A DNA stretch of 64,000 nucleotides from Candidatus Woesearchaeota archaeon (GTDB lineage: Archaea > Nanobdellota > Nanobdellia > Woesearchaeales > JABIAG01), in the NCBI GenBank assembly GCA_018653365.1, contig JABIAG010000001.1, forward strand, positions 260,772 to 324,771. The letters run 5' to 3'. A program made the translations under genes and the position numbers. This document shows positions 12,472 through 63,408 of the stretch, piece after piece (positions within the stretch are counted from its first letter, which is position 1; every line of letters begins with the position of its first letter). The notes beneath the pieces were generated by a model. The model did not search any database. It was not told where the DNA came from and saw only the letters and a list, made by a program, of their open reading frames with translations.

Positions 12472-12515
12472 AGAATAAGAATAAACAATATAAAGGGTTT
12501 GAAATTCTTTATTTC

Positions 12516-13805
12516 ATGGTTAGTGTTAAAGCACTTGCAGTGATGGTATCCTCGCCTTTTATAAGGCTGCATAAAAGTTCTATTCCTCAATCAAGAAGAG
12601 TAACTGAATTATTTATTGATGATGAAGAACGAACATTAGCAAAAGCAAGTATTTGGAGAAGTAATGATCCAATAGTAAATAATATTGCGGTTTTAAGAGT
12701 AAAAGGCACTCATTATGAGATGGGATTTCAACATGGAAGACTTTTAGAAACTGAAGTTAATTCATTTTATAATTCAATGCTAAAGTTAGCAATAGCCTAT
12801 GTTGGAAGAGAGGGGTTGTATGAAGCGTATCATATAATGGAACCATTTATACCTTCTTGCTATAAAGAAGAAATGTTGGGATTGGCACAGGGAGCCAATT
12901 TGCCATTAAGCTCAGTACATTTTGCTCATGTAGTTCCAGCACTAACTGAATATTACCATAGAACACAATTTGCAAGAGGGCTATTTTATAGAAGACCAGA
13001 ACAAAGAGATTTTGTATCACAAACTTGCAGTTTTGTAACTGCCTGGGGCGATGCAACCGTTAATGGAAACATGATTTCACTAAGAAACTTGGATTGGTTA
13101 AGATTTCTAAATGTTCAAAAAACTCCAACAGTAACTGTTTATGAATATGCTGATGGAACTAGTGTAGCAAATTTTGGATTTGCAGGATTTATTGGAAGCA
13201 TAACAGGAATGAATAATCAGGGATTAACTTTTGCAGAAATGGGAGTTACTGACGATCCCAGAGAGACATTAAAAGGAATCCCTTTTATTTTTTTAGCAAG
13301 AGAAATGTTAAGAACAGGTAAAACACTAAATGATGTGGTGAGTATGGCAAGAGAGGCCCCAAGAACTTGTAGTTACGGATACTTACTGGGGTCTGCACAT
13401 GAAAAAAATGCGGTAATGATGATTTCCAACCCTGAAGAGTTTGAAGTTTATAACCCTGGAGAGGATATAAAAGGGTTAAGTTATGGACAATCTGCTTTTT
13501 TCCCAGGAATAAAGAATGTCGTATATGCTGGAATGTTTGATAAACAATTAAATACATCCATTTCTCGAGCTTGGAGTAATATTGATGTCTCCCGAATGCA
13601 ACAGATTGCACATGAATGTGCTACAACTTCTTGTGTACAATCAGCAATAATGTGTCCAGATAAAGACCCCCACGTATTTGGAACAGCATATGTAGCAAAT
13701 GCCAAAGGATTATTTTTAGCAAAAGGGCAAGCAACAAACCGACCATATTTCGGAATAAATTTAGATAAAGTGTTAGCAAATGATGAAAACATTAGAATTA
13801 ACTAA
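12516..13805 (+). CDS. C45-family Ntn hydrolase (acyl-CoA:6-aminopenicillanic-acid acyltransferase-like)
   Basis: Probable nucleophile Cys in QTCSFVTAWG, followed by an NLDW motif. Atypical composition. Confidence 0.5.
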   Translation: MVSVKALAVMVSSPFIRLHKSSIPQSRRVTELFIDDEERTLAKASIWRSNDPIVNNIAVLRVKGTHYEMGFQHGRLLETEVNSFYNSMLKLAIAYVGREGLYEAYHIMEPFIPSCYKEEMLGLAQGANLPLSSVHFAHVVPALTEYYHRTQFARGLFYRRPEQRDFVSQTCSFVTAWGDATVNGNMISLRNLDWLRFLNVQKTPTVTVYEYADGTSVANFGFAGFIGSITGMNNQGLTFAEMGVTDDPRETLKGIPFIFLAREMLRTGKTLNDVVSMAREAPRTCSYGYLLGSAHEKNAVMMISNPEEFEVYNPGEDIKGLSYGQSAFFPGIKNVVYAGMFDKQLNTSISRAWSNIDVSRMQQIAHECATTSCVQSAIMCPDKDPHVFGTAYVANAKGLFLAKGQATNRPYFGINLDKVLANDENIRIN

Positions 13806-27525: not shown

Positions 27526-28860
27526 TTATTCTTTAGTTTGTGTTGATTCATTCATAGCAAAATTTGTTGAAAAAAGAATTGCTTGATCTTCAGTAGGGAA
27601 CATTTGAGAACCACTTGTGTATTTTTCATCAAGGATTTCTATGGCTCTTCTATAAAAACCTTTTATGGTATCTGCATTTTCAGCAAGAATCCAGGTGTTA
27701 TTTACTGGATTGATAACTCCTTCTTGTTTCTTTTTCCAAATTTTCCAACGTGAAGGTTTCCTACTTTGAGGTTGCCATTCAGTACTAAGGGCATTAGCTA
27801 ATTTGCTTTTTGCTGCTTGCATGGCTTTAGCACTAGCAAGAACTGGATCGTTAGCTTCTGTTTCTGATATGTAAGCAGTTAGGTCTCCATCATAACCTTG
27901 ATCAAGTCTATCTTTTGCTCTTTGAGCAACTCCCTCTCTTGCACGTCTATGGGAATTTACTCCTCTATCAGAAAGACCTGTAAAACCAAAATAGTTGTCT
28001 GCAGGTTTTTCTTCAATCGCAAGTTCGTAATCAGTTAAAGTTTGAAGATTATTAACGAAAGCATCACCTGTGTTGTTTGCTAAAGCATCAAGTGCAGGTT
28101 CAGCACTCATATCATGATCTTGAAGTGCAGTAACTATGTTATCTCTTAACCCTTGGATTGCGGTTTGAAGTCGTCTAGCTCCCCCCTCTCCTAAACTTCC
28201 AATATGAAGTTCATTTAAAGGACAAATATAACGATCATCTTCTTTTCTCCAGGTAGTATAATCTGTTGGAATAATTGGTTGAGGAACTTTTGCATCAGGA
28301 TCAATACTTACTGCGGGCATAAATCTTTCTATTAGTGTTGGATCTTGTTGAGTGTATCTTCCAAGCTCATCAAGTAAGTGAGCAGCTTGAGGAAAAGCAG
28401 CATTAGGTGAAGATGTAACGTTTTCTAACCAATCATGTAAGTCAGAAAGATGCCAGGGCTGACGAGCTTGCATTCTTGCATTACCACAAAGAGTTGCATA
28501 ATCTTGAGCTCTTCGTTCAGCACCAGTTCTAGAAAAACCACCAAATTGAGCTTCATCATCATCATCACAAAAAGGATCATTAAACATACCATTATCATAA
28601 GTAGTCCAGTTAGCAACATCAGAAGCATTTACAAGGCCAGTAATTGCATCTTCAATCAAATCAGCTCTTGCAATACGATCTGTTGCTTCATATTCTTGTC
28701 TAACAATTGCTTCTTTAGAATCTTGTCCATGAAAAATTTCTTTTATTAAATCAACGGTGTGAGGAATTGCTGTTGTTAGACCCATACCTATTGCAAGTGC
28801 AACGGCTCTTTTACGAACTCTTGGGTTTTCTGTTGGAGATCCTCTTGGTTCTGGTGTCAT
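27526..28860 (-). CDS. hypothetical protein (Lys-poor, Ala/Asp/Gln-rich)
   Basis: 444-aa ORF with no motif I recognise. Co-directional with, and 43 nt downstream of, the radical SAM gene. Confidence 0.5.
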   Translation of the reverse strand: MTPEPRGSPTENPRVRKRAVALAIGMGLTTAIPHTVDLIKEIFHGQDSKEAIVRQEYEATDRIARADLIEDAITGLVNASDVANWTTYDNGMFNDPFCDDDDEAQFGGFSRTGAERRAQDYATLCGNARMQARQPWHLSDLHDWLENVTSSPNAAFPQAAHLLDELGRYTQQDPTLIERFMPAVSIDPDAKVPQPIIPTDYTTWRKEDDRYICPLNELHIGSLGEGGARRLQTAIQGLRDNIVTALQDHDMSAEPALDALANNTGDAFVNNLQTLTDYELAIEEKPADNYFGFTGLSDRGVNSHRRAREGVAQRAKDRLDQGYDGDLTAYISETEANDPVLASAKAMQAAKSKLANALSTEWQPQSRKPSRWKIWKKKQEGVINPVNNTWILAENADTIKGFYRRAIEILDEKYTSGSQMFPTEDQAILFSTNFAMNESTQTKE

Positions 28861-28903
28861 TGACTGGTGGTAAAATAAATGAGCTTATAAAGGTTTTGGG
28901 TAG

Positions 28904-30244
28904 TTATGCTTGGGTGTTTTGAGGTGGGTTGTATGTTGCTAATTCTTCATTAAACTCAACATAACGTGGGTGCCAGTTCTCCGGCCACATTTGTTTAGCA
29001 ATTTGTTCACTAAGTAAACATAATGTTGAACGAACACTTCCTGCACGCTTTTGTTTTTCTAACAAAGCAAGATAATTCTGGTAATCTGGAAATTGAGTCA
29101 TTCTTTCTCTAATTGCATGAATGTTGTTTGCATAACCAATTCCCTCTATGCCTTCTTCAGAAACAAAATAACGATTAAGGGATGCTCTTATCTCTTGACT
29201 TTCGGGATCATCAAATTCAGTGTTATAAGGCACAACGTTTCCTATTGAATTAGTGTTGGGATAAACTTGAGAAATAGACATTCGCCTTTCCAAATTAGGA
29301 TCTAATCTAAACACTCGGTCTAGAGCTTCAACAATTGTATAGAGCCAGGGAATTCCAGTATGTTCTCCTTGTGCTAAACCGGCTCTTTCAAGAAGTGGGT
29401 CTGCTCTTAAGTGTTCATGCAAATATCCTTGTAAGGTGTATTGTTTTCTGTTTAAAGGTAAGACTGTAAAGTTAGTTCCTAACGGACTAAACCAAGTAAT
29501 CGTATCAACAAATTGCTGAATGGATTGTTCTTCTGTTAAACCGGGCATGCCAATAATTACATCTGGAGATGCTTTAACATCATATCTACGCATTAGCTCA
29601 ACAGATTTAACAATTTGTTCTCTAGTCAAATCTTTGTTTAACCAATGATTCAAAACAAATTCATCTGAAGTTTCTGCTCCAAATTCAAGAGTAAATTTGG
29701 TATCACCAAAACACCTTCTTAAAAGTCGAAGTCGATCTTCTGTAACATCTGTTGCTCTTACCTCAAATACATAACCTAATTTTGGGGGTTTAGATAATAT
29801 TGGAGTTTCAAATAATTCTAAAAATGTTTCTTCTGGAGTTTCTGTTGGACAAAACATATTGTAATTTGAAATTAATTCTTTTGGTCTCAGTGGATCTGGT
29901 TGTTCGCCTCTTGCGTTTGTAAAACTTCTTTTCATCACTTTTCCATACAAGTCAACATCTCTTTCTCTTAAAACCATCATTGCCGCTGCACCTGCTGTGA
30001 ATTCAGAATGATAGTCACATATACTACACCCTGCAAATTCACCTTCATTATTTCTGTGAACACAACCCAGAGAAGGTAAAAGACTTAGACTGCCGTGCTC
30101 ATATTGATATCCGCCCATGAGACAGGTTTCAGTTGCTTCTGCAACTAACTCTTCAGTGGAAAGTGCAGTTAATCTATCCTGATTTTGTTTGGAATTTGCT
30201 GAAACTGGTTCCCATATTTTTTTAATTACATCTTCTATAAACAT
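28904..30244 (-). CDS. radical SAM protein, YhcC/TIGR01212-like (Elp3-related) with CX11CX2C cluster motif
   Basis: GCVHRNNEGEFAGCSIC has the spacing C-x11-C-x2-C. DVIIGMPGLTEEQ matches the radical-SAM hhGhPGET motif. C-terminal ~130 aa has no recognisable domain. Confidence 0.55.
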   Translation of the reverse strand: MFIEDVIKKIWEPVSANSKQNQDRLTALSTEELVAEATETCLMGGYQYEHGSLSLLPSLGCVHRNNEGEFAGCSICDYHSEFTAGAAAMMVLRERDVDLYGKVMKRSFTNARGEQPDPLRPKELISNYNMFCPTETPEETFLELFETPILSKPPKLGYVFEVRATDVTEDRLRLLRRCFGDTKFTLEFGAETSDEFVLNHWLNKDLTREQIVKSVELMRRYDVKASPDVIIGMPGLTEEQSIQQFVDTITWFSPLGTNFTVLPLNRKQYTLQGYLHEHLRADPLLERAGLAQGEHTGIPWLYTIVEALDRVFRLDPNLERRMSISQVYPNTNSIGNVVPYNTEFDDPESQEIRASLNRYFVSEEGIEGIGYANNIHAIRERMTQFPDYQNYLALLEKQKRAGSVRSTLCLLSEQIAKQMWPENWHPRYVEFNEELATYNPPQNTQA

Positions 30245-31416: not shown

Positions 31417-31899
31417 ATGCCGGTTAAAACAAGCTTAAAATCAAGAGCAATTGATGAAATAGACAAAAAAATCTTGATGATACTGCAAGATGATGGACGA
31501 GAACAACTAACTTCTATCTCAAAGAAGGTTGGACTAAGTATAGATTCTGTACATAAACGAATAAAAGAGATGATGAGAAAAGATATTGTCGGAATAACCA
31601 CCTCTATAGATCCAAGAAAGATTGGGTACGACCTTATTGCCGATAATAAAATACGGCTAAAGAATGTGAGTGCTGAAGAGAGAACTCAATTTATAAGATA
31701 TTTGCAACAACATAATAGAGTGATAGATATATTTGCACTAATGGGGGACTATGATCTTACCTGTGTATTAATAGCAAAGGATTCAAATGAACTCGAGAAA
31801 TTAATAACTGAAATAAGACAAAAGTTTAGAGACCTAATTGATGAATGGAAAAGTTTGCTAGTATTAAAAACATATAAAATAGATCGCTACGATCTTTAA
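31417..31899 (+). CDS. Lrp/AsnC-family transcriptional regulator
   Basis: IDKKILMILQDDGREQLTSISKKVGLSIDSVHKRIKEM HTH plus a C-terminal RAM domain. Confidence 0.8.
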   Translation: MPVKTSLKSRAIDEIDKKILMILQDDGREQLTSISKKVGLSIDSVHKRIKEMMRKDIVGITTSIDPRKIGYDLIADNKIRLKNVSAEERTQFIRYLQQHNRVIDIFALMGDYDLTCVLIAKDSNELEKLITEIRQKFRDLIDEWKSLLVLKTYKIDRYDL

Positions 31900-33263
31900 T
31901 CAACATCTAAATGCCATCTAACATCTTTCTTAAGAATAACATTAGCTTGAGGGGGAATAGTTCCTTTTTTGTATGTGTAAATTGTTTGCTTTTTTATTTT
32001 ATCAATAATCTTCCAAGAGGTCTCAACCTCTTTTGCATGAATAAATGAAGATTTATTACCCTGAAAAACATCCAATAATAAGTTTTCATATGCTTTTGGA
32101 GAGTTAGGTTCAACACAAGACTGACAATAATCCATTTTAACTGGTTTAATATCTTTCTTACCAGGAACTTTAGCATTAATATGTAAATGAAAACCCTCCT
32201 TGGGTTGGATTTCAATAGTTAAATGATTTGGAATAAAGTCACAAACTCCTTTAAGTAAACCACAAGGAAGTTTCTTGAATTCAACATGAATTAGGACGAG
32301 TTTATTTTTTAGGTTCTTGCCTGTTAAAATGTAAAAGGGGGTTCGTTTCCAACGAGAATTATTTATCTGAAATTCACCACTAAAAAAAGTTTCAGTGCTC
32401 GAATTAGGTTTAACCCCGTTTTCTTTTTTATAACCTTCATACTGACCAAAAACACTTTTCTTTAATTTAGTTTTTTTAAGAACTGACAGTTTTTTTTCTC
32501 TAATCACTTTAGTAGAAAGTGAAGAGGGTTTTTCCATTGCAGTCAAAGCTAATAATTGTAGGGCATGATTTTGAACCACATCCTTTAAAGCACCATATTT
32601 ATCATAAAAACTTCCACGATCTCCAACTCCAAAATTTTCACTAAGAATTATTTGAATGTTATCAATATATTTCTTATTCCAAATAGGTTCAAGGAAAATA
32701 TTAGTAAAACGTAAAATAGATAAATTTTGAACGAGCTCTTTACCAAGATAATGATCAATTCGAAATATTTGAGATTCTTTGAAAACTTTTTGCACACCTC
32801 GATTTAATAATCTTGCAGATTTTAAATTAGAACCAAATGGTTTCTCAAAAACAACACGATGCCAACAATTATCTTTTTTGTTAAAACCCTGTTCACCAAG
32901 TTGATTTGCAATAACCTCAAAATGGGTTGGAAGCGTAGCAAGATAAAATAAACGATTACCTGGAAGAGTGTTCTTTTTTTCTAAATCTAAAATGAACTTT
33001 TTTAGATTCACAAAACTAGCTTTATTCTGAAAATTTGCAGAAAAATAATGGAAACTATCTTTTAAAATATTAAACGTTTTAGAATCTAAATTTTTAATAA
33101 ACTTTTTTGAGTGTTCTAAAATATTTTGAGAACGGTCTCTCGCAACACCCACTACAATGAACTTTTCTAATTTTTTGTTCTTGATAAGATTATACAATGC
33201 AGGAATTAACTTCTTCTTTGTTAAATCTCCAGTTGCTCCTAAAATAACTATTGTACAATTCAT
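31896..33263 (-). CDS. zwf: glucose-6-phosphate 1-dehydrogenase
   Basis: NADP site VILGATGDLTKKKLIPALYNL and the G6PD active-site signature RIDHYLGKE. Start at MNCTIV (33263), so it does not overlap the upstream gene. Confidence 0.85.
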   Translation of the reverse strand: MNCTIVILGATGDLTKKKLIPALYNLIKNKKLEKFIVVGVARDRSQNILEHSKKFIKNLDSKTFNILKDSFHYFSANFQNKASFVNLKKFILDLEKKNTLPGNRLFYLATLPTHFEVIANQLGEQGFNKKDNCWHRVVFEKPFGSNLKSARLLNRGVQKVFKESQIFRIDHYLGKELVQNLSILRFTNIFLEPIWNKKYIDNIQIILSENFGVGDRGSFYDKYGALKDVVQNHALQLLALTAMEKPSSLSTKVIREKKLSVLKKTKLKKSVFGQYEGYKKENGVKPNSSTETFFSGEFQINNSRWKRTPFYILTGKNLKNKLVLIHVEFKKLPCGLLKGVCDFIPNHLTIEIQPKEGFHLHINAKVPGKKDIKPVKMDYCQSCVEPNSPKAYENLLLDVFQGNKSSFIHAKEVETSWKIIDKIKKQTIYTYKKGTIPPQANVILKKDVRWHLDVD

Positions 33264-33301: not shown

Positions 33302-33775
33302 TTAAGCAACTTTCTCTTTCCAATTAGAATTAACCTTTTCTAAAAAAGGCAACATTTTTGGTTTGAATTCAGAATTCCAAAAATTAATTGCATTATCAAT
33401 AAATGCACCTTCTTGAAGTTTGTCTTTCTTTAAACCAATTAAAGTATTAGAACTAGTAATTTGAACAAGTTTATTCATTATGTTAAGTAATTCAGTTCGT
33501 TCCTCTTCACTAAACAACTGATGTTCAGTCATAGATAAAAGTGAGTTTGGGATAGGCATAACAATTCCATGAAGGTAACCAATCCAAGAATTATAAGTGT
33601 CAGTAATCCTTTTACAAATTTGTCTGGAAAGTTGAACACTAACAAAACCTTCATGTTGAACAAAATCTTTAATGAAAAAAACTTCATCCAATTCATCAAG
33701 TGTTACATTAAATTTAAGAGTTTGTTTAAGTTTAGTAAACTCTTCATTTAGTGTTATTAGTAATTCTTTTTTCAT
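33302..33775 (-). CDS. hypothetical protein
   Basis: 157-aa ORF upstream of and co-directional with zwf. Confidence 0.4.
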   Translation of the reverse strand: MKKELLITLNEEFTKLKQTLKFNVTLDELDEVFFIKDFVQHEGFVSVQLSRQICKRITDTYNSWIGYLHGIVMPIPNSLLSMTEHQLFSEEERTELLNIMNKLVQITSSNTLIGLKKDKLQEGAFIDNAINFWNSEFKPKMLPFLEKVNSNWKEKVA

Positions 33776-33857: not shown

Positions 33858-34556
33858 ATGATAAAAGAGCTATACCCTTCTGAAGCATATCTTAAAAACA
33901 ATCCTTCTTGGCATTCCAAAGATTCATACTGGAAAGCCAAACAAATAATAAAAATAATCAAGAAAAACAATCAAACATACGATTCAATCTGCGAGGTGGG
34001 GTGCGGAGCAGGCGAAATTCTTATTCAATTACAAAAAAGTATGCACAAAAAATGCGATTTTAGGGGATACGAAATTTCACCCGCTGCTTACAAAATTTGT
34101 AAAGAGAAAGAGAATGAAAAAATAAACTTCAAATTTAAAGATATTCTATTAGAAGAAAACGTTACTTTTGAACTAATGTTAATTATTGACGTAATCGAAC
34201 ACTTAGAAGATTATGCGAACTTTCTAGAAAAAACTAAAACCAAAAGCAAACATAAAATATTTCATATTCCTTTAGAAATGAACGCCTTAAGCATATTAAG
34301 AAAACAAGCTCTTTTAACAAAAAGAAAGAAAGTGGGACACATACATTTTTTCACAAAAGAATTAGCAATTCAAACCCTAAAAGATTGTGGATATGAAATT
34401 TTAGACTATTTTTATACTGCTGGCGGGGTAGAACTCAAATCTAAAAGTATTAGAAACAATTTGCTAAGACTTCCAAGAAAAATACTTTTTGCAATAAATA
34501 AAGATTTCTGTGTTCGTCTCTTAGGCGGGTATTCACTTTTAGTATTAGCAAAATGA
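33858..34556 (+). CDS. class I SAM-dependent methyltransferase
   Basis: Motif I ICEVGCGAGEIL and the downstream LIIDVIEHL motif. Confidence 0.7.
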   Translation: MIKELYPSEAYLKNNPSWHSKDSYWKAKQIIKIIKKNNQTYDSICEVGCGAGEILIQLQKSMHKKCDFRGYEISPAAYKICKEKENEKINFKFKDILLEENVTFELMLIIDVIEHLEDYANFLEKTKTKSKHKIFHIPLEMNALSILRKQALLTKRKKVGHIHFFTKELAIQTLKDCGYEILDYFYTAGGVELKSKSIRNNLLRLPRKILFAINKDFCVRLLGGYSLLVLAK

Positions 34557-35168
34557 TTATTCTTGTAAAAATTCAATTAAACCACGATGACGTATGGCAC
34601 TAACCATTGCACGATAATGATCTTCAAAAGTATCCAGGTTTATTTCTGCTCTACTTAAAAGTCTTTTTCCATAAGTGTTTTTAGGACAAAACTCGACCTT
34701 TTCTCCTGCTGGACGAAATTTACGACATTCTGCCCCAGTAATTTCAGCAATTCTTGCTCTAAACTTACTTTTCTCATTTTCTAAATCCTGGGTTGCGAAT
34801 TGGTCTATTGTGCTAAAACCCATTTTTGTGACTATATTTATTACACTATACGCAGAATGTACAAGTTGAAGTAATCTTAAATCTTCTTTGTCAAACTCAT
34901 ATCCGTCCTGTTGAAGTTGTCTATAAGATTTTAAACATTCTAGTATAAACGTTCTGTCACTCCAACCGAGTATTTGAGTTTGCACTCTTTGTTCCCATAA
35001 GTCTGCATTTAGAGTTGCAACAATTTTCGGAAGGGTCTGAGGTCCTGAAGTAACCGCATGAACGATTAAACCTGTCTTATTCCTATTTATCAAATCTGCA
35101 TGTTGTACACAAGAAGGTGCGTCTGTTAACAACTTTCTTGTCCTGGTCGCTACCTCATAAACGTTCAT
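34557..35168 (-). CDS. hypothetical protein (Lys-poor)
   Basis: 203-aa ORF divergent from the CARF-HEPN gene. Confidence 0.4.
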   Translation of the reverse strand: MNVYEVATRTRKLLTDAPSCVQHADLINRNKTGLIVHAVTSGPQTLPKIVATLNADLWEQRVQTQILGWSDRTFILECLKSYRQLQQDGYEFDKEDLRLLQLVHSAYSVINIVTKMGFSTIDQFATQDLENEKSKFRARIAEITGAECRKFRPAGEKVEFCPKNTYGKRLLSRAEINLDTFEDHYRAMVSAIRHRGLIEFLQE

Positions 35169-35181
35169 AACCTAAAGAAGG

Positions 35182-36534
35182 TTGTCTAATCTTAAAAAGA
35201 TTCTGGCATTTACCAAAGATTTAAAAAAGAGGTTAAATTGCTTTAATTCTTATATGGCAAGTGGATTAATTCTAGCACCTGGTTTAGACGAGTTTATGGC
35301 AGAATTTACTGTAAAAGAGATCAAGGCAGATCATGTAGCTTTCATGGCAACAGAAGCCACAGTAGAATTAATTCATCATGTTGTGGAAAAATTAGAGATA
35401 AAATCATATAAAACATTCTTTGTAAAAAACATAATCAGTACATCTGAAGCAATAGAAGAATTCATCAACGCATTTCAATGGCTAAAAGAAAAAGAGTGTA
35501 CTAAAATAACAGTAGACGCAACAAATTGTATAACTGTAATGGAAATGGCAACCTATGTTGCAGCAAGTTTAATGGACCTGTTTGAAAAAGGAGAAACTGA
35601 ACACGAAGTGAACTTAGTGTATGTACATTCAGATTTTGAAATTAAAAAAGATGGAGTTGCGGGAGAGGTAAGGGGAACAGAACGATTAATTGAACTAGAA
35701 AAGCCATTAGATAGTTTAGGAATTATCTTGGCACACGACGCAATACATGCATTTAATAGTAACCGATACGTACAAGCTGCAGAAAACTTTAAAGTATTGG
35801 GAGAGAATTCCACTTCTGATAAATCATTATTTTACCGAGGGTTGAAACACCTGTCTCAGGCATACAATTTTTGGGATAAAATGAACTTTAATGATGCACT
35901 ACTTGCTTTGAAAAAAGCAGAAGATGAACTTAATAGAGTGTGGTACACAAGAAACAAAAGTGCTTTTTCCCATGTGAAAGAAAACATTAAGGTTCTAGAA
36001 GAACTAAAAAACCATAATGAACTTGCAGTAATAATTGACCTGTACATGAACGCAGTAAGACGACAAAAATCAGAAAGGTATGATGACGCTCTCGCAAGAC
36101 TTTATGCGTGTGTTGAAAGAATTTCACAACACCAATTAAAAGAACATGGAATTGTTACAAAAAATCCAGATTATTCTAACTTACCTAAAGAGGTTAAGGA
36201 TAGATTTGAAAAAGAGATCGGACTACCTAAAGAATTAGAACTGAAAAAAGGACTGTATCTATTATCTTTGCTAAATGATCCAATAGGAAAAGAAGTACTA
36301 GGTCTGCGTTACAAGTCAATAGTCGGAATTATTGGATTACGTAATACCTCAATACTAGCACATGGAATAAAACCCATCGGTGAGAAAAACTTTCTTGATT
36401 TCAAAGAAAAATTATCAGATAAACTATACAATGCATTCTTATTACATTATAAAATGGGAGCAGGATTTATTGATGGCCATAAACACATAAAACTCTCAAA
36501 TGTACGTGATTTGATGTATAAAGAAAGATTTTAA
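35182..36534 (+). CDS. CARF-HEPN protein, Csx1/Csm6-like (orphan, no cas context in window)
   Basis: N-terminal Rossmann-like CARF pattern (LILAPGLDEF ... KITVDATNCITVMEMA). Central YMNAVRRQKSERYDDALARLYACVE helix is typical of Csx1/Csm6 HEPN. C-terminal RNTSILAHG contains the R-x4-6-H motif. Confidence 0.5.
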   Translation: MSNLKKILAFTKDLKKRLNCFNSYMASGLILAPGLDEFMAEFTVKEIKADHVAFMATEATVELIHHVVEKLEIKSYKTFFVKNIISTSEAIEEFINAFQWLKEKECTKITVDATNCITVMEMATYVAASLMDLFEKGETEHEVNLVYVHSDFEIKKDGVAGEVRGTERLIELEKPLDSLGIILAHDAIHAFNSNRYVQAAENFKVLGENSTSDKSLFYRGLKHLSQAYNFWDKMNFNDALLALKKAEDELNRVWYTRNKSAFSHVKENIKVLEELKNHNELAVIIDLYMNAVRRQKSERYDDALARLYACVERISQHQLKEHGIVTKNPDYSNLPKEVKDRFEKEIGLPKELELKKGLYLLSLLNDPIGKEVLGLRYKSIVGIIGLRNTSILAHGIKPIGEKNFLDFKEKLSDKLYNAFLLHYKMGAGFIDGHKHIKLSNVRDLMYKERF

Positions 36535-36588
36535 TTCTCGTGCTTAAATATGGCTAATCTTTTTAAATAAAGTGATATTAGCTGATGC

Positions 36589-38136
36589 ATGCCTGATTTT
36601 AGATCTACAAAAGAATTCGAAAGACTCTGTTTTGATGCAGAAGCATTTTTACAAGCTCAATCTGCAGGTTCAACAAAATATCTTTTGGTAATAAACCAAG
36701 AAAGACTTCTGACTGCATTAGGACCTGCGTTTACACTGAAGTGGGCACTAGAACCCGAAGAAATAGTAGAAGAGAAAAAACCAAAAAAAGAAGGCGACGA
36801 ACCGGAAATAAAAATCGACCGTCCAAGAGAACGAGCTAAAAGAAGAATAGATACTTTACAAGGAGAAATCAGACGGCAGTTAAGAGCTAATGCTGGATTA
36901 ACTATTGAACAAATAGGGCAAAACCACAGATATGGGCTAGTAGATCTGTTAAGTATACCGGTTTTAGATGAAGCTGCTGTAAGTGGAACTTTACTGGAAG
37001 GTCAAACGTGTTTGAAAATACTCAGAATAGTAAAACCTGGAAAATTAAAAGATTATAAAAAAAGATTTTCAAGATTCGACTTTAAACCATACTTACATCA
37101 AACCGAAACATTGACTGGCCTGGACTTAGAAAATATCTGTGCACATACTGAAGAAAGAAGAATAGAAAACCCTGCTTTGGTCGGGTTAAAAGATATTTTC
37201 ATAGAAAGTTATGAAGGAAGCAATATTGCAGGAGCATTAAATTTTCTTAGAGAACGAGCAACTGCACAATCTTTGAGCATATTAAGACAATCTGCAGAAG
37301 AAGTTTTTAGAACAAACAGTCAGATGATACAAGGAGACAAATTTGAAGAAGTGGAAGGAAGAAATTATGTGGAACTTTTGAGAGAATTAGGACATATTTC
37401 TTCATCAGATTATGCACAAGCAAAAGCAATGATGTTTGCCGGACATAAAGCAGTACATGGAGAACACACCGCATTCCATTCCCTCAACGCATTACTCTTT
37501 TATTCCTGGATTACTGATTATGTAGATAGAACTGTAGGAATGCACAGACTAACTAAATCAAAAGTAAATGGGACCTCTCTAAACATGCCTTACAATCAAG
37601 AATTAGATGAAGAAAGACACGGATTTACAAGAGCAATCTTTGATCAGTTTCAAGCAATGAGGGCAACAGAACCTGCAGGCAAGTATGAGGGAGGGCTTTT
37701 AGCGGGAGATAGAACAGTTAGCAAAGTGGATGCAATGACAAATGCAATGCAATTATTAGAATATGTTAAGCCATTAATTGACGATCTTTGTATGTCTGAC
37801 CAAAAGTTTTGTGAAGTTATGAGTTTTTGGAGAGGAAGACACGAGAAGAAAAAGTATGCAGAATATTCAAGTGAAGATGCACTGAGAGCAAACCTATTTG
37901 TTTTTGGAATATGCTATAAAGCACACAGACAAGAACCCTCAAGATTAGAATTAAAAGTTCCAGGGGATAGGGGAGATAATAATCTTTTCGTAGCAATAAG
38001 AAGAAAAGCAGCAGGACCAACGTTCTACAGTGAAGTGTTTAGAGACTTAGAACCTGCTTTGAATTCACAATTAACTATGGCAAAAGAAATAGCAGAAGCT
38101 TATCTGGCAACGCTTGTTGGAATTGAGTTGAAATAA
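36589..38136 (+). CDS. hypothetical protein (Arg-rich, Lys-poor)
   Basis: 515-aa ORF with no recognised motif, ending 36 nt from the tRNA-Gln 3' end. Confidence 0.5.
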   Translation: MPDFRSTKEFERLCFDAEAFLQAQSAGSTKYLLVINQERLLTALGPAFTLKWALEPEEIVEEKKPKKEGDEPEIKIDRPRERAKRRIDTLQGEIRRQLRANAGLTIEQIGQNHRYGLVDLLSIPVLDEAAVSGTLLEGQTCLKILRIVKPGKLKDYKKRFSRFDFKPYLHQTETLTGLDLENICAHTEERRIENPALVGLKDIFIESYEGSNIAGALNFLRERATAQSLSILRQSAEEVFRTNSQMIQGDKFEEVEGRNYVELLRELGHISSSDYAQAKAMMFAGHKAVHGEHTAFHSLNALLFYSWITDYVDRTVGMHRLTKSKVNGTSLNMPYNQELDEERHGFTRAIFDQFQAMRATEPAGKYEGGLLAGDRTVSKVDAMTNAMQLLEYVKPLIDDLCMSDQKFCEVMSFWRGRHEKKKYAEYSSEDALRANLFVFGICYKAHRQEPSRLELKVPGDRGDNNLFVAIRRKAAGPTFYSEVFRDLEPALNSQLTMAKEIAEAYLATLVGIELK

Positions 38137-38171
38137 AAATATAGTTCTAGTTTATTGCTTAATTAAAAAAA

Positions 38172-38284
38172 TGGTAGCCCCACCCAGATTCGAACTGGGG
38201 TCCCCGGACATTTTCATCTAAAACATCCAGATCGGCTTTTCAGATACCAAAATCCGAAATGATTGACCACTACACCATGGGGCT
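38172..38284 (-). tRNA. tRNA-Gln (anticodon UUG) with 37-nt canonical-position intron and genomically encoded CCA
   Basis: Acceptor AGCCCCA/TGGGGCT. Anticodon stem TCGGA/TCCGG with loop TTTTGG(G) interrupted after position 37. Intron forms an hBH-like structure (TTTT/AAAA and ATCT/AGAT helices). T-arm CCCAGTTCGAATCTGGG. ACCA at the 3' end. Confidence 0.75.
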
Positions 38285-38369: not shown

Positions 38370-39137
38370 ATGAAATGGGTAATTCTTACGTTGATGTTAT
38401 TGTTATTGGTAGCGTGTAGTTCAGACATACCCAATAATGAAACTGTAAATGAAACTGTTGTTGAGGAAGTTCCTGAGACTCCTGAAGAAATGTACAAAAC
38501 AAATGGTGACTTCATACCCAAAGTAAATTCTGAAACAGCTTATCCTGAATTAAATCAAACAATGAAAATAAGAACTGCAGTACAAAATTATGGGGTTAGT
38601 GTAATTAATAATACTATGAGTTATACTTTGAAAATGACTCGATTAGAAGAAATAGTCTATGAAAAATCTGAAAGCGTGAATATTAATCTTCTAGCAACAG
38701 AAGAACTAGAACTGCATGAATTTGAATACACTTTTGACAGATACGGCGAATTTGATATTGAATTAATAGTAGATGAAAAAAACACAACTCATGAATTAAA
38801 AGAAGATAATAATGTTGAAGTGTTTACTGTTTATGTGAGGGCAGTAGTAGATGAACCTGATTCTGATGATGACGATGATGAAGATGAACCTCCCGAAACG
38901 GGATTGGATAATGATGACGCAAAAGATGAAGTATCAGCAAATGGTTGTTACGATTCAGATGGTGGAAAAGAATATGGTACAACTGGAATCTGTTATGATG
39001 ATGTTAGTTTTGAAAATGGACGAGCTGATTTTTGTGCTGGGGATGAAAGATTGGCAGAAGGTTTTTGTGAAGCCAAAGCATGTAATTTTGAGGTAAAAAC
39101 GTGTAGTGGTGTGTGTCGCGATGGTAAATGCGTTTAA
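38370..39137 (+). CDS. secreted lipoprotein with poly-acidic segment and Cys-rich C-terminal domain
   Basis: Signal peptide with lipobox LLVAC. Acidic run DEPDSDDDDDEDEPPE. 8 Cys in the last 70 aa. Confidence 0.5.
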   Translation: MKWVILTLMLLLLVACSSDIPNNETVNETVVEEVPETPEEMYKTNGDFIPKVNSETAYPELNQTMKIRTAVQNYGVSVINNTMSYTLKMTRLEEIVYEKSESVNINLLATEELELHEFEYTFDRYGEFDIELIVDEKNTTHELKEDNNVEVFTVYVRAVVDEPDSDDDDDEDEPPETGLDNDDAKDEVSANGCYDSDGGKEYGTTGICYDDVSFENGRADFCAGDERLAEGFCEAKACNFEVKTCSGVCRDGKCV

Positions 39138-39988
39138 TTAAGTAAAGTTTCTAAATCTGTTAAAACTTCTAAAGGAAATGATTGTCCCTTACAATTACAC
39201 CAATCTGGAACTCGAAGATCATTGATTGCTAACGTAGTTTGTCCATCTTTGAAAACATATGCCTCAACAACAGGAACAAGAACATAAGGTTTCTCAGTAG
39301 CAGGATCATAAGTTGGTTTGCCACGTCTTTCATTTCGTCTTTCAAGTCTAATCATGTAATTTGTATTACCAACACTACCCCTAAAAACACGGATATTTCT
39401 AAGCAATAAATTATCCATTAGACCCCATGAATGCCTTGCACTTCCTGCAAGTTTAAGAGCAGCCGAATAAATTCGTTCTCCAGTTTCATCTGATTCCAGA
39501 CCAGTTATTGCAGCATTAAGTCCAGGAGGTAAATCAATTCGATGACTTTGCCTTTTTGGGTTTGAAATTAGTTGTCCAACAAGATCTACCTCATCACAAC
39601 GAGGGTTAAATCGAGTAAAACAAAAATCTAAATTAAAATATGAATTTGTACTAGTTGGATGAACAACCCTCCAACACTCTTCAACGGAAACGTTACTCGT
39701 TCCCATCTGAACCATTGTTGGACCAGCACCCACCCTTCCTAAATCCAATTTTTTTTTATAAGAAAAAGGCGTTATACTTAAAGAACCTGAAGTTCCAGAG
39801 TGATGATGCCACTCAAACCCTGCGGGATTGCCGTTTCTACGATAATCAACACTAGCAACATATAATTTTTCGTTAAAAATACCTGCTTTAATCTTCTCAT
39901 GCCAAAACTCACCTTTAAAATCTATTCCAGTTTCTGCAGCAGCTTTAACTCCCTCATATAATTGACAAACAAATTGAGCATTATTCAT
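39134..39988 (-). CDS. hypothetical protein (Lys-poor)
   Basis: 284-aa ORF with atypical composition. Confidence 0.4.
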   Translation of the reverse strand: MNNAQFVCQLYEGVKAAAETGIDFKGEFWHEKIKAGIFNEKLYVASVDYRRNGNPAGFEWHHHSGTSGSLSITPFSYKKKLDLGRVGAGPTMVQMGTSNVSVEECWRVVHPTSTNSYFNLDFCFTRFNPRCDEVDLVGQLISNPKRQSHRIDLPPGLNAAITGLESDETGERIYSAALKLAGSARHSWGLMDNLLLRNIRVFRGSVGNTNYMIRLERRNERRGKPTYDPATEKPYVLVPVVEAYVFKDGQTTLAINDLRVPDWCNCKGQSFPLEVLTDLETLLN

Positions 39989-40063
39989 TAATATGGAGAA
40001 TAAGAATGTTTTTTTAACGCTTTTGGTTAATCTTTTTAAATCAAATTAAACTCGTTAATTAAT

Positions 40064-40513
40064 ATGCAAAGAACATATTTTAGAGCAATGTCTACTAGAG
40101 AATATCAGATTTGGGAAGGACAAGAACGTGTAGATTCTGGACTGGATTGGACAGAGTTAACAATCGCAAGATTTGGAGGGTATCCCTTAAGTACATTAAA
40201 AGAATCCATAGACTCTGGATTACCTGGCTGGGGACCACATGATGTGATGATTAAGTTAGTGAGTTCTGAGCCAGGGGAGTTTATGTTAAAAACAATGGAA
40301 GAACAACTTGGGGAGGGAGCTGGTTTTGATCTCATGGTACCCTACAGATACATGAATTTTGCTCCACTATCATTTAGTAAAGTACATGTTGTTTACGATC
40401 CTCGTGCAGAAGTTTCACCAAAACCAGTTGATGAATTAGAACAGTTTAGAGAAAAAGGGTTATGGGAATGCATGTCTGAGTGTTTGAAAGAAATGTTTGG
40501 AAAGTCTCATTGA
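40064..40513 (+). CDS. hypothetical protein (Lys-poor)
   Basis: 149-aa ORF with atypical composition. Confidence 0.4.
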   Translation: MQRTYFRAMSTREYQIWEGQERVDSGLDWTELTIARFGGYPLSTLKESIDSGLPGWGPHDVMIKLVSSEPGEFMLKTMEEQLGEGAGFDLMVPYRYMNFAPLSFSKVHVVYDPRAEVSPKPVDELEQFREKGLWECMSECLKEMFGKSH

Positions 40514-41229: not shown

Positions 41230-41377
41230 ATGTTTGGGAGGGAGTTGTCTATATATAAATCTTAGTAAATTAAGTGAGGTTGGAGAGGATTTAGTATAAA
41301 AACCGTAGCATTTAAAAAGGAAACAATGGTTCTTAAGATAAATGACAAAAAATATTGTCATAATGAGGAAAAATAAA

Positions 41378-41752
41378 ATGAAAGGAACAGTAAAATTTTT
41401 TGATGGAACCAGAGGATTTGGTTTTATCGCAGGAGAGGATGGCAAAGAGTACTTTGTACACCAAACTGCACTAGGAGAAGGAGTAACATTAAATGAAAAT
41501 GAGGCAGTAACCTTCGAAGTTGAAGAAGGAGATAGAGGTCCTAAAGCAGTTAATGTCGCAAGAGGTGGAGAAGATTCTGCACCTGCTGAAGAAGCAAGTG
41601 AAGATGTTGCAGAAGATGCAGCTGAAGAACCTGCTGAAGAAGCAAGTGAAGAAGTTGCAGAAGATGCAGCTGAAGAACCTGCTGAAGAAGAAGCTGAAGA
41701 AGAAGCACCTGCTGAAGAAGCAAGTGAAGACGAAGCTGAAGACGCAGAATAA
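41378..41752 (+). CDS. cold-shock domain protein (bacterial CspA-like) with acidic tandem-repeat C-terminal tail
   Basis: MKGTVKFFDGTRGFGFI (RNP1-like KGFGFI) and VHQTAL. Start at 41378 follows a GAGGA SD. The tail contains 16-aa AEEASEDVAEDAAEEP repeats. Confidence 0.75.
   Translation: MKGTVKFFDGTRGFGFIAGEDGKEYFVHQTALGEGVTLNENEAVTFEVEEGDRGPKAVNVARGGEDSAPAEEASEDVAEDAAEEPAEEASEEVAEDAAEEPAEEEAEEEAPAEEASEDEAEDAE
41582..41677 (+). repeat. 2 x 48-bp near-perfect in-frame tandem repeat (degenerate third copy to 41752)
   Basis: cctgctgaagaagcaagtgaagatgttgcagaagatgcagctgaagaa occurs twice in a row with one substitution. Confidence 0.7.
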
Positions 41753-41841: not shown

Positions 41842-42402
41842 ATGATTAAGCAAATTCTGTTAACTAGACAACATTGTGAACAGTTAGCTCATGTAAATAA
41901 TGAGGATATTGAATTTAATGGTTTTGGTCTTTTGGTTAGAACTTCAGAAGATATTGCGGTTGTTTCGGAATTAGAGCTTGTTCTGGGTGAAGAAAATAGT
42001 TCAGTTGGTTGGAACCTGCCTACTTTTATGTCGCTTTGGCAAAAGAATCCTGAAAAGTACTCTTTGATAATGGTTCATACGCACTCAAGAAGGTATGGAG
42101 ATGTGATAAGAAAATTTGATCCTTATTGGTCTGTAAGTAGAAGAAATAGTGGACATAAACAAGGAACGGTTTTGGAAAACAGGTTTTATATTTCAAAACA
42201 CCTTGATTCTGGAGATAATGTAACAATGAAATATGGATATGAGAATGGCTTGTTTGAGACTGCTTTGCTTGTTCACCCTGTTGTTGGTTCTGAGGGAGAA
42301 GTAATGACTCCAGCGCATGTTAGAATAACAGCTTATGCTTATGATCCTGCAAGTCTTGGAAATGTTAAGGGTTTAGATCTTGTTATGCTGGCTGAGACGT
42401 AA
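41842..42402 (+). CDS. hypothetical protein
   Basis: 186-aa ORF. Its HTHSRRYGD segment is not a full JAMM motif. Confidence 0.4.
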   Translation: MIKQILLTRQHCEQLAHVNNEDIEFNGFGLLVRTSEDIAVVSELELVLGEENSSVGWNLPTFMSLWQKNPEKYSLIMVHTHSRRYGDVIRKFDPYWSVSRRNSGHKQGTVLENRFYISKHLDSGDNVTMKYGYENGLFETALLVHPVVGSEGEVMTPAHVRITAYAYDPASLGNVKGLDLVMLAET

Positions 42403-43871: not shown

Positions 43872-44474
43872 ATGCCAGAAATAGTGAGACTAACAAGACA
43901 AAGAGAAGAATTAGCATTAGATGTAACCGCATTCTATAGGACAGAATTATCAAAATTGAAAAACGTCTATTTTACACCTGAAAGAGTAAGAGAAATGTTG
44001 GCAAAAAGAAATTTAACTTATTTTCAAGAACTAGCAAGACAAGGAAATTTAAAAGTAACACCCAAACAACCTGTAACTAGAGTACAGCTTGCTTTGGATG
44101 GAGAACAATTAGTCGGAGTAAGAGAAACAACCGATTACGCAATGGAACAGGGGGGAGAGGTTGTGGGTTTAACAAGAGCACTAATTTGGTTATTGGCAGA
44201 ACCCAAAGGACGAGGAACAGGCACATTATTACTTAATGATATGATTGAAAATTCAGAAGGTGTTGATGCACTAGCACTTAATGTTGCACAAACAAATAAA
44301 GGGGCTAGAAAACTTTATCGAGGTAGGGGTTTTGAATACTGTTGTGTCCAACCAGGACATGAAAACCAATTAGTACCTAATCAATTATGGGTAAAACCTT
44401 TAACTCAGTTGGGTTATAAAACACTTAGGGTGGAAAGAAAAAGAGCACTAGCAGAAAAATCCAGTTCTAAATGA
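43872..44474 (+). CDS. GNAT-family N-acetyltransferase (Lys-poor)
   Basis: LAEPKGRGTGTLLL (Q/RxxGxG/A acetyl-CoA motif) and the ARKLYRGRGF motif. Confidence 0.5.
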   Translation: MPEIVRLTRQREELALDVTAFYRTELSKLKNVYFTPERVREMLAKRNLTYFQELARQGNLKVTPKQPVTRVQLALDGEQLVGVRETTDYAMEQGGEVVGLTRALIWLLAEPKGRGTGTLLLNDMIENSEGVDALALNVAQTNKGARKLYRGRGFEYCCVQPGHENQLVPNQLWVKPLTQLGYKTLRVERKRALAEKSSSK

Positions 44475-44526
44475 TTCGGGTGTAATTTAAGTAATCTTCT
44501 TAAACAAAGTTTAGTTCTTAAGAGCT

Positions 44527-45177
44527 ATGAAAGCAGTGTTAATGTTATATCCAATAAGACAAATTGTAGAAAGAGATCCAGAATTTCCAAGCTTAAGATG
44601 CGAACTGGTGGATGGCTTGAAACGTTACTGGACTCAAAGTTTAAATGGGGTTGTAACTCCTGAAGAATTTGATCAAGATTTTGGGTTAATTAATCGAAGA
44701 TTAGCTAACTACAGAAAACAAGGATTTAATGTGGGATGGATATTTTTCGGTCAAGAAGGTAATCTTGGCAAGCCCGATACATCAACACAAGCTTCACTAT
44801 TTGACATCAGAACAGAAGATGTAAAGCTTTCTGCAGGTTTTACTTATGCAAATTATCGAACAGGAGTGTTCTATTGCGATGCAGAATCAGTACTATCAAC
44901 TTTGCCAAGTTTGGATGATGTTGTAATTGGGGGATTTCATAATAGTGATTGTGTTCCAAAACTTGCAGGTTTATTGAAACAAGCAGGAGTTAAAGCACAA
45001 ACCGATCCAAGATTAACCGATGAAATATTTCTTTATTCTCACAGAATTTTAGAACAAAGACTCGCAAGATATCAAATAGACCATGGTTTTTTAGATTCAG
45101 AAATGAACGAAGATAATCCAGAAGAAATGCGAACTCTTTTTGAAAGAGAAGCCGTAGAAGAAAAACTTTTAATCTAA
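44527..45177 (+). CDS. hypothetical protein (Lys-poor)
   Basis: 216-aa ORF with atypical composition. Confidence 0.4.
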   Translation: MKAVLMLYPIRQIVERDPEFPSLRCELVDGLKRYWTQSLNGVVTPEEFDQDFGLINRRLANYRKQGFNVGWIFFGQEGNLGKPDTSTQASLFDIRTEDVKLSAGFTYANYRTGVFYCDAESVLSTLPSLDDVVIGGFHNSDCVPKLAGLLKQAGVKAQTDPRLTDEIFLYSHRILEQRLARYQIDHGFLDSEMNEDNPEEMRTLFEREAVEEKLLI

Positions 45178-45875: not shown

Positions 45876-46556
45876 TTATAAAGCAGTAGTAATAAGGTCT
45901 TCAATAAAGGGTTGATCTGAAAAATAAGTATGCTCTCGAAATGTAACTACTGGAAATTGGCATTCTTCGTTTAAAGTTCCCCCAAGCCTATCTGCTCTAG
46001 CATGAACTAAAACATCTAAGTAAACATCACCAACAGCTTCTTGAAATTTTCTAAACACAACTGCGGGATGGTTTGCCGTACTCAACCCAGTGTAAAGTCT
46101 TAAAGGTCTCATATGATTAGAAATTACTTGAGTCATATAATCAACTTCGGGTTTTTCAAGACCTAATTCATTTAAAATTTCTAGTGCTGCTTTAGCACCA
46201 ACTTCTGCATGGTTAGGACAAGAAGTAACCCCTCCAAATTTAGTTTGCATAACTGGACGGCCACTCTCAGTTACACAAGCTTTACCAATATCATGTAACA
46301 AAGCACAAGCACCCAATAAATCTCTTTTAGTATAATGGCCAACATTGTGAAAAAAATAAGTTCTTAATCTTGCTCGTACTTCAGGAACTTGAATAAAACC
46401 AAAGTTCAAAGAATCATCCAATGCAGCTTTCACGGCTTTAGTGTGATCTAAAACTGTAGGTTCGGTATGATACTGATTTACATCACGAACATTTGCCAAT
46501 GCCTGGACCTGGGGCTTGATTTCAATTATGCCCATTAAATTCCAAATTGGGATCAT
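45876..46556 (-). CDS. HD-domain metal-dependent phosphohydrolase
   Basis: ALLHDIGK HD motif with downstream His residues. Confidence 0.65.
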   Translation of the reverse strand: MIPIWNLMGIIEIKPQVQALANVRDVNQYHTEPTVLDHTKAVKAALDDSLNFGFIQVPEVRARLRTYFFHNVGHYTKRDLLGACALLHDIGKACVTESGRPVMQTKFGGVTSCPNHAEVGAKAALEILNELGLEKPEVDYMTQVISNHMRPLRLYTGLSTANHPAVVFRKFQEAVGDVYLDVLVHARADRLGGTLNEECQFPVVTFREHTYFSDQPFIEDLITTAL

Positions 46557-51149: not shown

Positions 51150-51761
51150 ATGAACATACTTGGACGAGAAGTAACCGCAAGGAAATATGGGAATTTACCT
51201 TTAATTAATGCATATGTGGCATTAAAAACCGGGGATTGTAAAAAGGAAATGAGTGCTGCTTACGTTTGTCTAGATAATTGTGAAAAGAGATTTATAACTG
51301 CACGGTTCGTTCAAGGACAACCAATTTCAGTTAAAGCAATAGTCCCTGGAGAACTCAGGGTAAGAGAAGATTTGTGTGAATTTGTAAGACAACATGAAAG
51401 TGCAGAATCTTTTATGCAAGCTCTAAGTCAACAATCAGGATATAGACTAATTGTTGAAGGTAATAAACAATCTTTATTTTATCAAGATGATCAAGTGGCA
51501 TTTAGTATACCCTGCGGGTATTCAAATAAAGCGGAGTTGTGGTCTTCCGAAGTTCAACAAAGTTTGGGCCAACTTTGTTCAAGATTTGGTGAAGTCGAAG
51601 CAATAGCAGAAAATGTTCTTTTAGAAAGACTTGTAGAAGATAAAGCATTGAGTGCACAATTAATGAACCCCATGATAATGCAAATGATGTCTTCAACTTT
51701 TGGATCTGAGGGAGAAAGGCTGGTGCGTATCTTAAGAGAAGCTCAAGCAAGACGAAATTAA
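51150..51761 (+). CDS. hypothetical protein (Lys-poor, Gln/Arg-rich)
   Basis: 203-aa ORF with atypical composition. Confidence 0.4.
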   Translation: MNILGREVTARKYGNLPLINAYVALKTGDCKKEMSAAYVCLDNCEKRFITARFVQGQPISVKAIVPGELRVREDLCEFVRQHESAESFMQALSQQSGYRLIVEGNKQSLFYQDDQVAFSIPCGYSNKAELWSSEVQQSLGQLCSRFGEVEAIAENVLLERLVEDKALSAQLMNPMIMQMMSSTFGSEGERLVRILREAQARRN

Positions 51762-63353: not shown

Positions 63354-63370
63354 TTATTTCTTAAGAATAA
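63353..63370. repeat. 18-bp direct repeat copy 1 (ATTATTTCTTAAGAATAA)
   Basis: Exact copy of 63888..63905. Contains the palindrome TTCTTAAGAA. Confidence 0.4.
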
Positions 63371-63408
63371 CAGAAAACAATTTAAATCAAGTTTTATTGA
63401 TAAACTGA

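Follow-up and report, generated by a model that had tools for sequence, protein, structure and literature searches.

The locus described here lies on a stretch of 64,000 nucleotides (nt) of DNA from a Candidatus Woesearchaeota archaeon (assembly GCA_018653365.1, contig JABIAG010000001.1, positions 260,772 to 324,771 of the forward strand), referred to below as the window and numbered from its first letter. In the window, a block of three genes is enclosed by a methyltransferase gene and the 3' end of a tRNA-Gln gene. The block encodes a protein of 203 amino acids (aa), a Csx1/Csm6-family ribonuclease (Csx1) with a CARF and a HEPN domain, and a protein of 515 aa. An earlier reading made from the letters alone (the sequence-only reading) had proposed that the block is an island integrated at the tRNA gene. 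Labels of the form L079 denote loci and contigs used for comparison. The features of the locus are the following:

33302..33775, minus strand: gene for a Lys-rich 157-aa protein with no Pfam match, used as the left-flank marker; its homologue at L079:84-551(-) is 67% identical.
33858..34556, plus strand: class I S-adenosylmethionine (SAM) methyltransferase gene (Pfam Methyltransf_23 and others), a variable gene at this site.
34557..35168, minus strand: gene for the Arg-rich, Lys-poor 203-aa protein, divergent from Csx1 and outside the widely conserved pair.
35169..35253, no strand: divergent intergenic region of 85 nt between the 203-aa gene and Csx1, with presumed promoters.
35254..36534, plus strand: gene for a Csx1/Csm6-family CARF-6H-HEPN ribonuclease (TIGR02710; identified with Pfam, PADLOC, and NCBIfam), with no cas genes nearby.
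36551..36586, plus strand: element resembling a promoter, in which a TATA-like CTTTTTAAATA precedes the ATG of the 515-aa gene by 30 nt.
36589..38136, plus strand: gene for the 515-aa protein, a member of a new Arg-rich family and the conserved partner of Csx1 (identified by its phmmer family and by gene linkage).
38172-38284, minus strand: gene for tRNA-Gln(UUG) that encodes its CCA end; exon 1 at 38284-38247, a 37-nt intron at 38246-38210, and exon 2 at 38209-38172.

Csx1 and a gene of the 515-aa family occur together in at least eight independent archaeal loci, the window and seven others, and no informative exception was found. The explanation that best accounts for the locus is that this pair, about 2.9 kb in extent, is a rare unit, inherited and relocated as one, that is found repeatedly among small archaeal genomes, and that the block in the window is a resident accessory cassette rather than a recognizable integrated element. 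A single joint judgment covers the whole of this explanation, which we consider probable, with appreciable room for doubt.

The assignment of the ribonuclease is consistent across several libraries. Pfam detects the Csm6 HEPN domain (3.6e-27) and Csm6_6H (3.1e-10), PADLOC reports Csx1 (1.4e-55) and also CARF1--CARF_HEPN, and NCBIfam matches TIGR02710 at 146.6 bits (cut-off 83.9), with residues 18-387 aligned to positions 5-377 of the 384 in the profile. The nearest solved structure is that of Thermus thermophilus Csm6 (5FSH, E 1.6e-13). The HEPN motif RNxSILAHG (R363...H370) is invariant in five Csx1 orthologues, leaving the R-x(4-6)-H signature intact. The most likely start, judged from sequence, is the ATG at 35254, giving 426 aa, rather than the TTG at 35182, because the N-termini of homologues align there. 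The 85-nt region upstream presumably holds the promoters of both divergent genes, and an A/T-rich TTTAAAAAAG lies about 25-35 nt before the Csx1 ATG.

The partner of Csx1 belongs to a small and divergent family. When 1.84 billion proteins were searched exhaustively with phmmer, 19 representatives were obtained at E<=1e-3; the relatives include 17 that are full-length (470-560 aa, 26-35% identity), besides shorter fragments, one of which is 82% identical. The description of the 515-aa protein as an orphan reading frame, which a k-mer-indexed homologue search had given, was rejected once this exhaustive search recovered the family. Neither Pfam, PADLOC, NCBIfam, PHROGs, nor the sequences in the PDB contain a match to the protein. 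An AlphaFold2 model built with the family alignment (predicted local distance difference test score (pLDDT) 82, predicted template modeling score 0.83) has an N-terminal alpha/beta part and an all-alpha C-terminal part, and Foldseek finds no significant match to this model in the PDB or BFVD. Twelve residues are invariant in the family (P124, D179, L229, R233, Q277, H290, G317, H319, K323, D352, D430, and R433). Nine of them are polar (D179, R233, Q277, H290, H319, K323, D352, D430, and R433), and all of the nine except D179 fall in the C-terminal helical region. The polar invariant His, Lys, Arg, and Asp residues suggest that the family may be enzymatic.

Membership of the partner in the HEPN superfamily was considered and found no support. 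Comparison with the Csx1 HEPN alignment by hhalign gave a probability of 0.3%, Pfam searches with family members and with their consensus were negative, and the PDB sequence search was negative as well. The Foldseek matches of best probability are HepS (9OIJ, 0.33) and the DUF86 protein YutE (1YLM, 0.51), both with E > 1 and template modeling scores (TM) < 0.45. Two family motifs, (R/K)TIGxH and GNxAxH, recall the Rx4-6H motif of such HEPN defense proteins; however, the Arg of the first motif is Lys in 5 of 17 family members.

The promoter-like element before the 515-aa gene has counterparts elsewhere in the window. The repeat that contains it (D7, 36551..36586) also matches the region upstream of the gene at 40064, and the CTTTTTAAATA 11-mer occurs, with at most one mismatch, at 36559, 40032, 43841, 51119, and 59147 on the plus strand. 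At these sites it stands 30-32 nt before the ATG of the genes starting at 36589, 40064, 43872, 51150, and 59179, and its overall count is not above chance. This spacing suggests that the five genes may have very short leaders or none.

Linkage of the two genes is seen from both directions of search. In L071/L072, L074, and L075, Csx1 is directly followed by the 515-family gene in the same orientation, and the two genes are divergently oriented in L076/L077; L078 is too short to show the context of its 515-family gene. A reverse search of metagenomes from the Csx1 subfamily found five loci, and the 515-family gene follows in each of the three that have room for it (L080, L082, and L083). Spacers between the paired genes range from 22 to 61 nt across loci, with 54 nt in the window. 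The two genes diverge in a correlated way (r 0.71 for 21 pairs of loci), and the partner evolves faster: among the six closest loci, partners are 30-45% identical versus 49-64% for the ribonucleases. Upstream of Csx1, other loci carry unrelated genes, and the distant ones have nothing that corresponds to the 203-aa gene. No description of the pairing was found in family libraries or in the searchable literature, a scope that did not take in the 2020 CARF classification.

What surrounds the pair differs between distant genomes. In L074 the flanks carry TatD, chorismate mutase, and two tRNAs (tRNA-Pro and another), and in L075 they carry MNT-HepT and RFC. A tRNA-Glu with a 102-nt intron, called in L075 by ARAGORN -i, was dropped as Rfam did not confirm it. 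The genes rpS7 and EF-2 are usually neighbors in the archaeal str cluster. Between them, in another archaeon, L076:6957-11512 and L077:2246-6801 contain the pair together with a gene for a 300-aa protein and one for a C39-type peptidase. At L083:4062-5162 (+), 520 nt downstream of the cassette, lies a gene for a divergent tyrosine integrase (PF00589, E 2.5e-12); neither attachment (att)-like repeats nor a tRNA were found in the 10 kb covered at this locus. Because contexts differ, one insertion interrupts the rpS7-EF-2 cluster, and one copy stands beside an integrase, the best reading is that the cassette is mobile over long time scales.

Several roles can be proposed for the paired proteins. 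From its family membership, Csx1 would be a ligand-gated ribonuclease of the abortive-infection or dormancy type, in which a ligand resembling cyclic oligoadenylate would bind the CARF domain and switch on the HEPN site (R363/H370). The 515-aa partner may control this switch by sensing infection, by supplying or removing the ligand, or by binding Csx1 directly. A controlling role is proposed because the linkage is invariant and Cas10 is missing, which is an argument from gene neighborhood.

The main rival explanation is that Csx1 is an ancillary effector of the ordinary kind, serving a type III CRISPR-Cas system whose genes lie elsewhere in the genome, and that the 515-aa protein is a co-encoded CRISPR-ancillary protein, such as a second effector or a ring-nuclease-like off-switch. 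Ancillary genes can lie distant from the type III effector module. Proteins of the TIGR02710/Csm6 group are typically type III ancillary ribonucleases, and the order of the CARF, 6H, and HEPN parts as well as the invariant R...H motif are as in T. thermophilus Csm6, the nearest structure. On the other hand, no cas10, csm, or cmr genes or CRISPR-like repeats were found in the window (64 kb of a genome of about 1.1 Mb), in L074, L075, or L076, nor any cas genes near the L083 cassette, where the flanks covered at these four loci amount to 7-16 kb. Also unlike type III effectors, this Csx1, whose activity and ligand are predictions, is always paired with an unrelated protein of about 500 aa, and the partner family was seen only next to Csx1 genes of this subfamily and has no entry in PADLOC, NCBIfam, or Pfam. 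A scan of IMG/VR viral contigs with the Csx1 alignment gave no match. Every CARF family includes members unlinked to CRISPR-Cas (Makarova et al. 2014, PMC4012209), which speaks for this explanation; Csx1 of this locus is one such gene, here with a strictly conserved partner from a family that is missing from Pfam, NCBIfam, PADLOC, and PHROGs. On this evidence, the ordinary ancillary effector is an unlikely explanation that still carries real weight.

A bolder proposal is that the pair constitutes a self-contained, CRISPR-independent signaling defense module of small DPANN-type archaea, in which a partner of new fold would replace Cas10 as the sensor that makes or gates the CARF ligand, or would license the HEPN ribonuclease. 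We put this forward tentatively and think it rather unlikely in this full form.

The position of the block next to a tRNA gene was one basis of the island proposal, and the tRNA itself is genuine. The gene at 38172-38284 (-) is missed by ARAGORN with default settings and by a gathering-threshold Rfam scan of the whole window. Intron-aware ARAGORN finds c[38172,38284], miscalled as Phe(aaa) with an odd intron position, and manual splicing of the 37-nt intron at the canonical 37/38 position restores a canonical tRNA-Gln(ttg). An Rfam search of the local region matches RF00005 (45.6 bits, E 6.5e-9). A bulge-helix-bulge motif can be drawn from the anticodon arm and the intron. With the stop of the 515-aa reading frame at 38136, a gap of 35 nt separates it from the encoded CCA at the tRNA 3' end. 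The sequence-only reading was right about the tRNA and its adjacency to the block, and its gap of 36 nt is corrected to 35.

This is the only tRNA detected within the 64 kb. Exact copies of its 26-nt 5' half, with one R position allowed, occur in 62 stretches of genome sequence (L007-L068), all but a few of them from Thermoplasmata and only one labeled Woesearchaeota; these are uninformative for synteny.

Apart from the position at the tRNA 3' end, the marks of an integrated element are missing from the window. Among the genes with Pfam annotation between about 3.8 and 64 kb, none codes for a recombinase or a transposase. Probes of 16, 20, and 25 nt from the 3' part of the tRNA, with up to three mismatches allowed, found no att-like copy in the 64 kb and matched only the tRNA itself, and no repeat family within 20-45 kb involves tRNA-Gln. 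Pfam annotation, the mismatch-tolerant probes, and the repeat scan thus agree with the sequence-only reading, which had itself reported neither an integrase nor a duplicated tRNA 3' end. Its description of third positions as AT-adapted, with Arg encoded by AGA, was also accurate: GC content at third codon positions (GC3) is 0.23 in the block genes and about 0.2 across the window, and AGA is the preferred codon for Arg, used 32 times out of 38 in the 515-aa gene. The codon and k-mer comparisons it had called for reveal no deviation from native usage; synonymous codon fit of the three genes gives z values of -1.05, -0.48, and +0.09, and tetranucleotide correlation of the block gives z of -0.4 to -1.25. 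An identical methyltransferase is recorded in 73 sequence blocks of the collection searched, and in all 24 population contigs that were read it has the same neighbors, the three-gene block included; no empty site was seen in these 24 contigs, all of which carry the identical methyltransferase.

A second argument for foreign origin, that three Arg-rich, Lys-poor genes contrast with a Lys-rich host, holds in part as description and fails as a mark of foreign DNA. The 203-aa protein (K 5.9%, R 7.9%) and the 515-aa protein (K 6.6%, R 7.4%) have this make-up, whereas Csx1 (K 10.1%, R 3.8%) is host-like, with K/(K+R) of 0.73 versus a window median of 0.70. Moreover, K/(K+R) is below 0.5 in 14 of the 69 open reading frames (ORFs) of the window, which are interspersed with housekeeping genes to either side of the tRNA. 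Beyond the tRNA they include 39134-39988 and 41842-42402, and the ORF at 40064-40513 stands at 0.50. An Arg-rich make-up (R 6.2-9.9%, K/(K+R) 0.40-0.58) is seen in each of the 17 full-length homologues of the 515-aa protein, whose loci have 30-41% GC and Lys-rich neighbors, and the homologue of the 203-aa protein in L079 keeps K 4.5% and R 7.9% at 36% identity. Because the bias is kept in the homologues of both proteins, the Arg-rich make-up is a trait of the two protein families and not the trace of a donor genome. In AT-rich genomes, an amino acid bias can reflect the protein family rather than foreign DNA, which calls for caution in reading such contrasts.

Lys/Arg usage in the window is bimodal as a whole, with 14 or 15 of the 69 ORFs at K/(K+R) <= 0.50 and GC3 like the rest. 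Examples of the Lys-poor class are found at 11431-13805, 27526-30244, 39134-40513, 41842-42402, 43872-45177, 45876-46556, 51150-51761, and 62592-63888, often as adjacent pairs between core genes. A Pfam match is lacking in 12 of 15 Lys-poor ORFs versus about 9 of 50 Lys-rich ones (Fisher p 2e-5).

The left side of the block is best seen in L079, a 2.4-kb contig with a 157-aa homologue (67% identical), 31 nt, a 203-aa homologue (36%), and Csx1 (79%), in the order and orientation of the window. Since the order of the 157-aa gene, the 203-aa gene, and Csx1 is kept, the block and its left flank predate the split from this relative. The 31 nt at L079:552-582 contain no methyltransferase, and the difference of 752 nt in locus length corresponds to the methyltransferase gene plus spacer. 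The methyltransferase is therefore an indel difference between the window genome and its closest sampled relative and is not the ancestral neighbor of the tRNA; the sequence-only reading had taken it for the host neighbor, and L079 has no such gene separating the homologues of the 157-aa and 203-aa proteins. In the window, the stop codons of the methyltransferase and 203-aa genes directly adjoin, without a spacer.

The sole homologue found for the 203-aa protein is the one in L079 (L079:583-1230), and the protein has no match in Pfam, PADLOC, NCBIfam, PHROGs, or PDB. A single conserved block, ECRxFRPAGExVxFCPK, is shared with this homologue, and a single-sequence AlphaFold2 model is unusable (pLDDT 53). 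The 203-aa gene is lineage-specific and diverges far faster than its neighbors (36% versus 67% and 79%).

The right side can be compared in L084, a 1.4-kb contig from a close relative that encodes the C-terminus of a 515-aa homologue at 84% amino acid identity. DNA identity with the window is 85% up to 13 nt past the 515-aa stop; 19 nt onward is an OmdA-like gene, with no tRNA-Gln. The adjacency of the block to the methyltransferase and to tRNA-Gln is thus not conserved. The synteny comparison that had been suggested gives a divided answer from two short contigs, in which the left flank of the block is kept, the methyltransferase is variable, and the tRNA is missing on the right.

The gene for glucose-6-phosphate dehydrogenase (G6PD), farther left at 31896-33263 (-), was tried as a synteny anchor and rejected as uninformative. 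Its nearest proteins are labeled Woesearchaeota or Nanoarchaeota, at no more than 59% identity. In the window the gene stands alone between a gene for an AsnC-type regulator and the 157-aa gene; the nearest homologues (L002-L005, 55-59%) lie in a complete operon of the oxidative pentose-phosphate pathway (6PGL, TAL, G6PD, 6PGD, RpiB, Rpe, and Tkt). The window as a whole has 33% G+C and carries the archaeal core genes Cdc45/GAN, FtsZ, diphthine synthase, EF-2, EF-1alpha, and genes for ribosomal proteins. At 41342-41752 (+) it encodes a cold-shock-domain protein whose acidic, Glu/Ala-rich C-terminal tail derives from tandem repeats of 12, 24, and 48 nt.

With these comparisons in place, the island proposal can be weighed in its strongest form, that of an old integrative element which entered at the tRNA-Gln 3' end, from which the integrase and the distal att site have since disappeared, and whose third positions have been ameliorated. 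Like the known elements that target tRNA genes by tyrosine integrases, the block abuts a tRNA 3' end and consists of accessory, defense-type genes, and one copy of the cassette, in L083, stands beside a PF00589 integrase. It also fits such an origin that the cassette occurs in differing contexts elsewhere, that two tRNAs, tRNA-Pro and another, come after the copy in L074, and that both ends of the block differ between relatives. Unlike those elements, the block has in its window no integrase, no att duplication, and no deviation in codon usage or composition. Furthermore, the compositional argument has failed, no empty site was seen in the 24 contigs, the left host gene is shared with L079, the contig of the close relative lacks tRNA-Gln 3' of the 515-aa homologue, and in L074 the tRNAs present their 5' ends to the cassette. 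An old integrative element is consequently improbable. The window gives no sign of insertion at tRNA-Gln by an integrase; what stands of the island proposal is that the DNA is accessory and horizontally mobile, and what falls are its specific arguments for integration at the tRNA.

Least probable among the explanations is a toxin-antitoxin-like pair in which the 515-aa protein would neutralize a Csx1 toxin by binding or modifying it, in the way that MNT acts on HepT, to give addiction or abortive infection with no nucleotide signal: strict two-gene linkage with 22-61-nt spacers, the faster divergence of the partner, and small defense or toxin-antitoxin genes near some loci (for example, MNT-HepT in L075) would suit it, but the full-length CARF domain (TIGR02710 5-377 of 384) argues for ligand control, the partner, at 470-560 aa with a dozen invariant residues, is much larger and more enzyme-like than typical antitoxins, and the two genes are divergent in L076.

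The resident cassette remains the probable explanation, and several points weigh against it. The picture of the flanks comes from two fragments, L079 and L084, which are short contigs from different samples and perhaps from different organisms. The nearest G6PD relatives are only 59% identical, too distant for a true synteny comparison, so that an ancient integration with decayed integrase and att sites retains some probability. Furthermore, tRNA genes directly follow the cassette in two of eight loci (the window and L074), marginally more often than by chance (p about 0.05). A type III CRISPR-Cas system in the rest of the genome would reduce Csx1 to an ordinary ancillary effector. Finally, the partner has no detectable homology or fold match, and calling it a sensor or regulator is a guess from gene linkage. 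For the resident cassette, the history proposed is that it reached this lineage by horizontal transfer before the split from the nearest sampled relative, and that it may now adjoin tRNA-Gln through local gene turnover rather than site-specific integration.

The question of the island is an ordinary one, and the main interest of the locus lies in the gene linkage. CARF-HEPN effectors normally need Cas10 for their activating ligand, whereas here a single, strictly conserved partner accompanies Csx1 with no cas gene nearby. If that partner supplies, removes, or replaces the signal, the pair would represent a new input to CARF signaling and a defense system of reduced archaeal symbionts.

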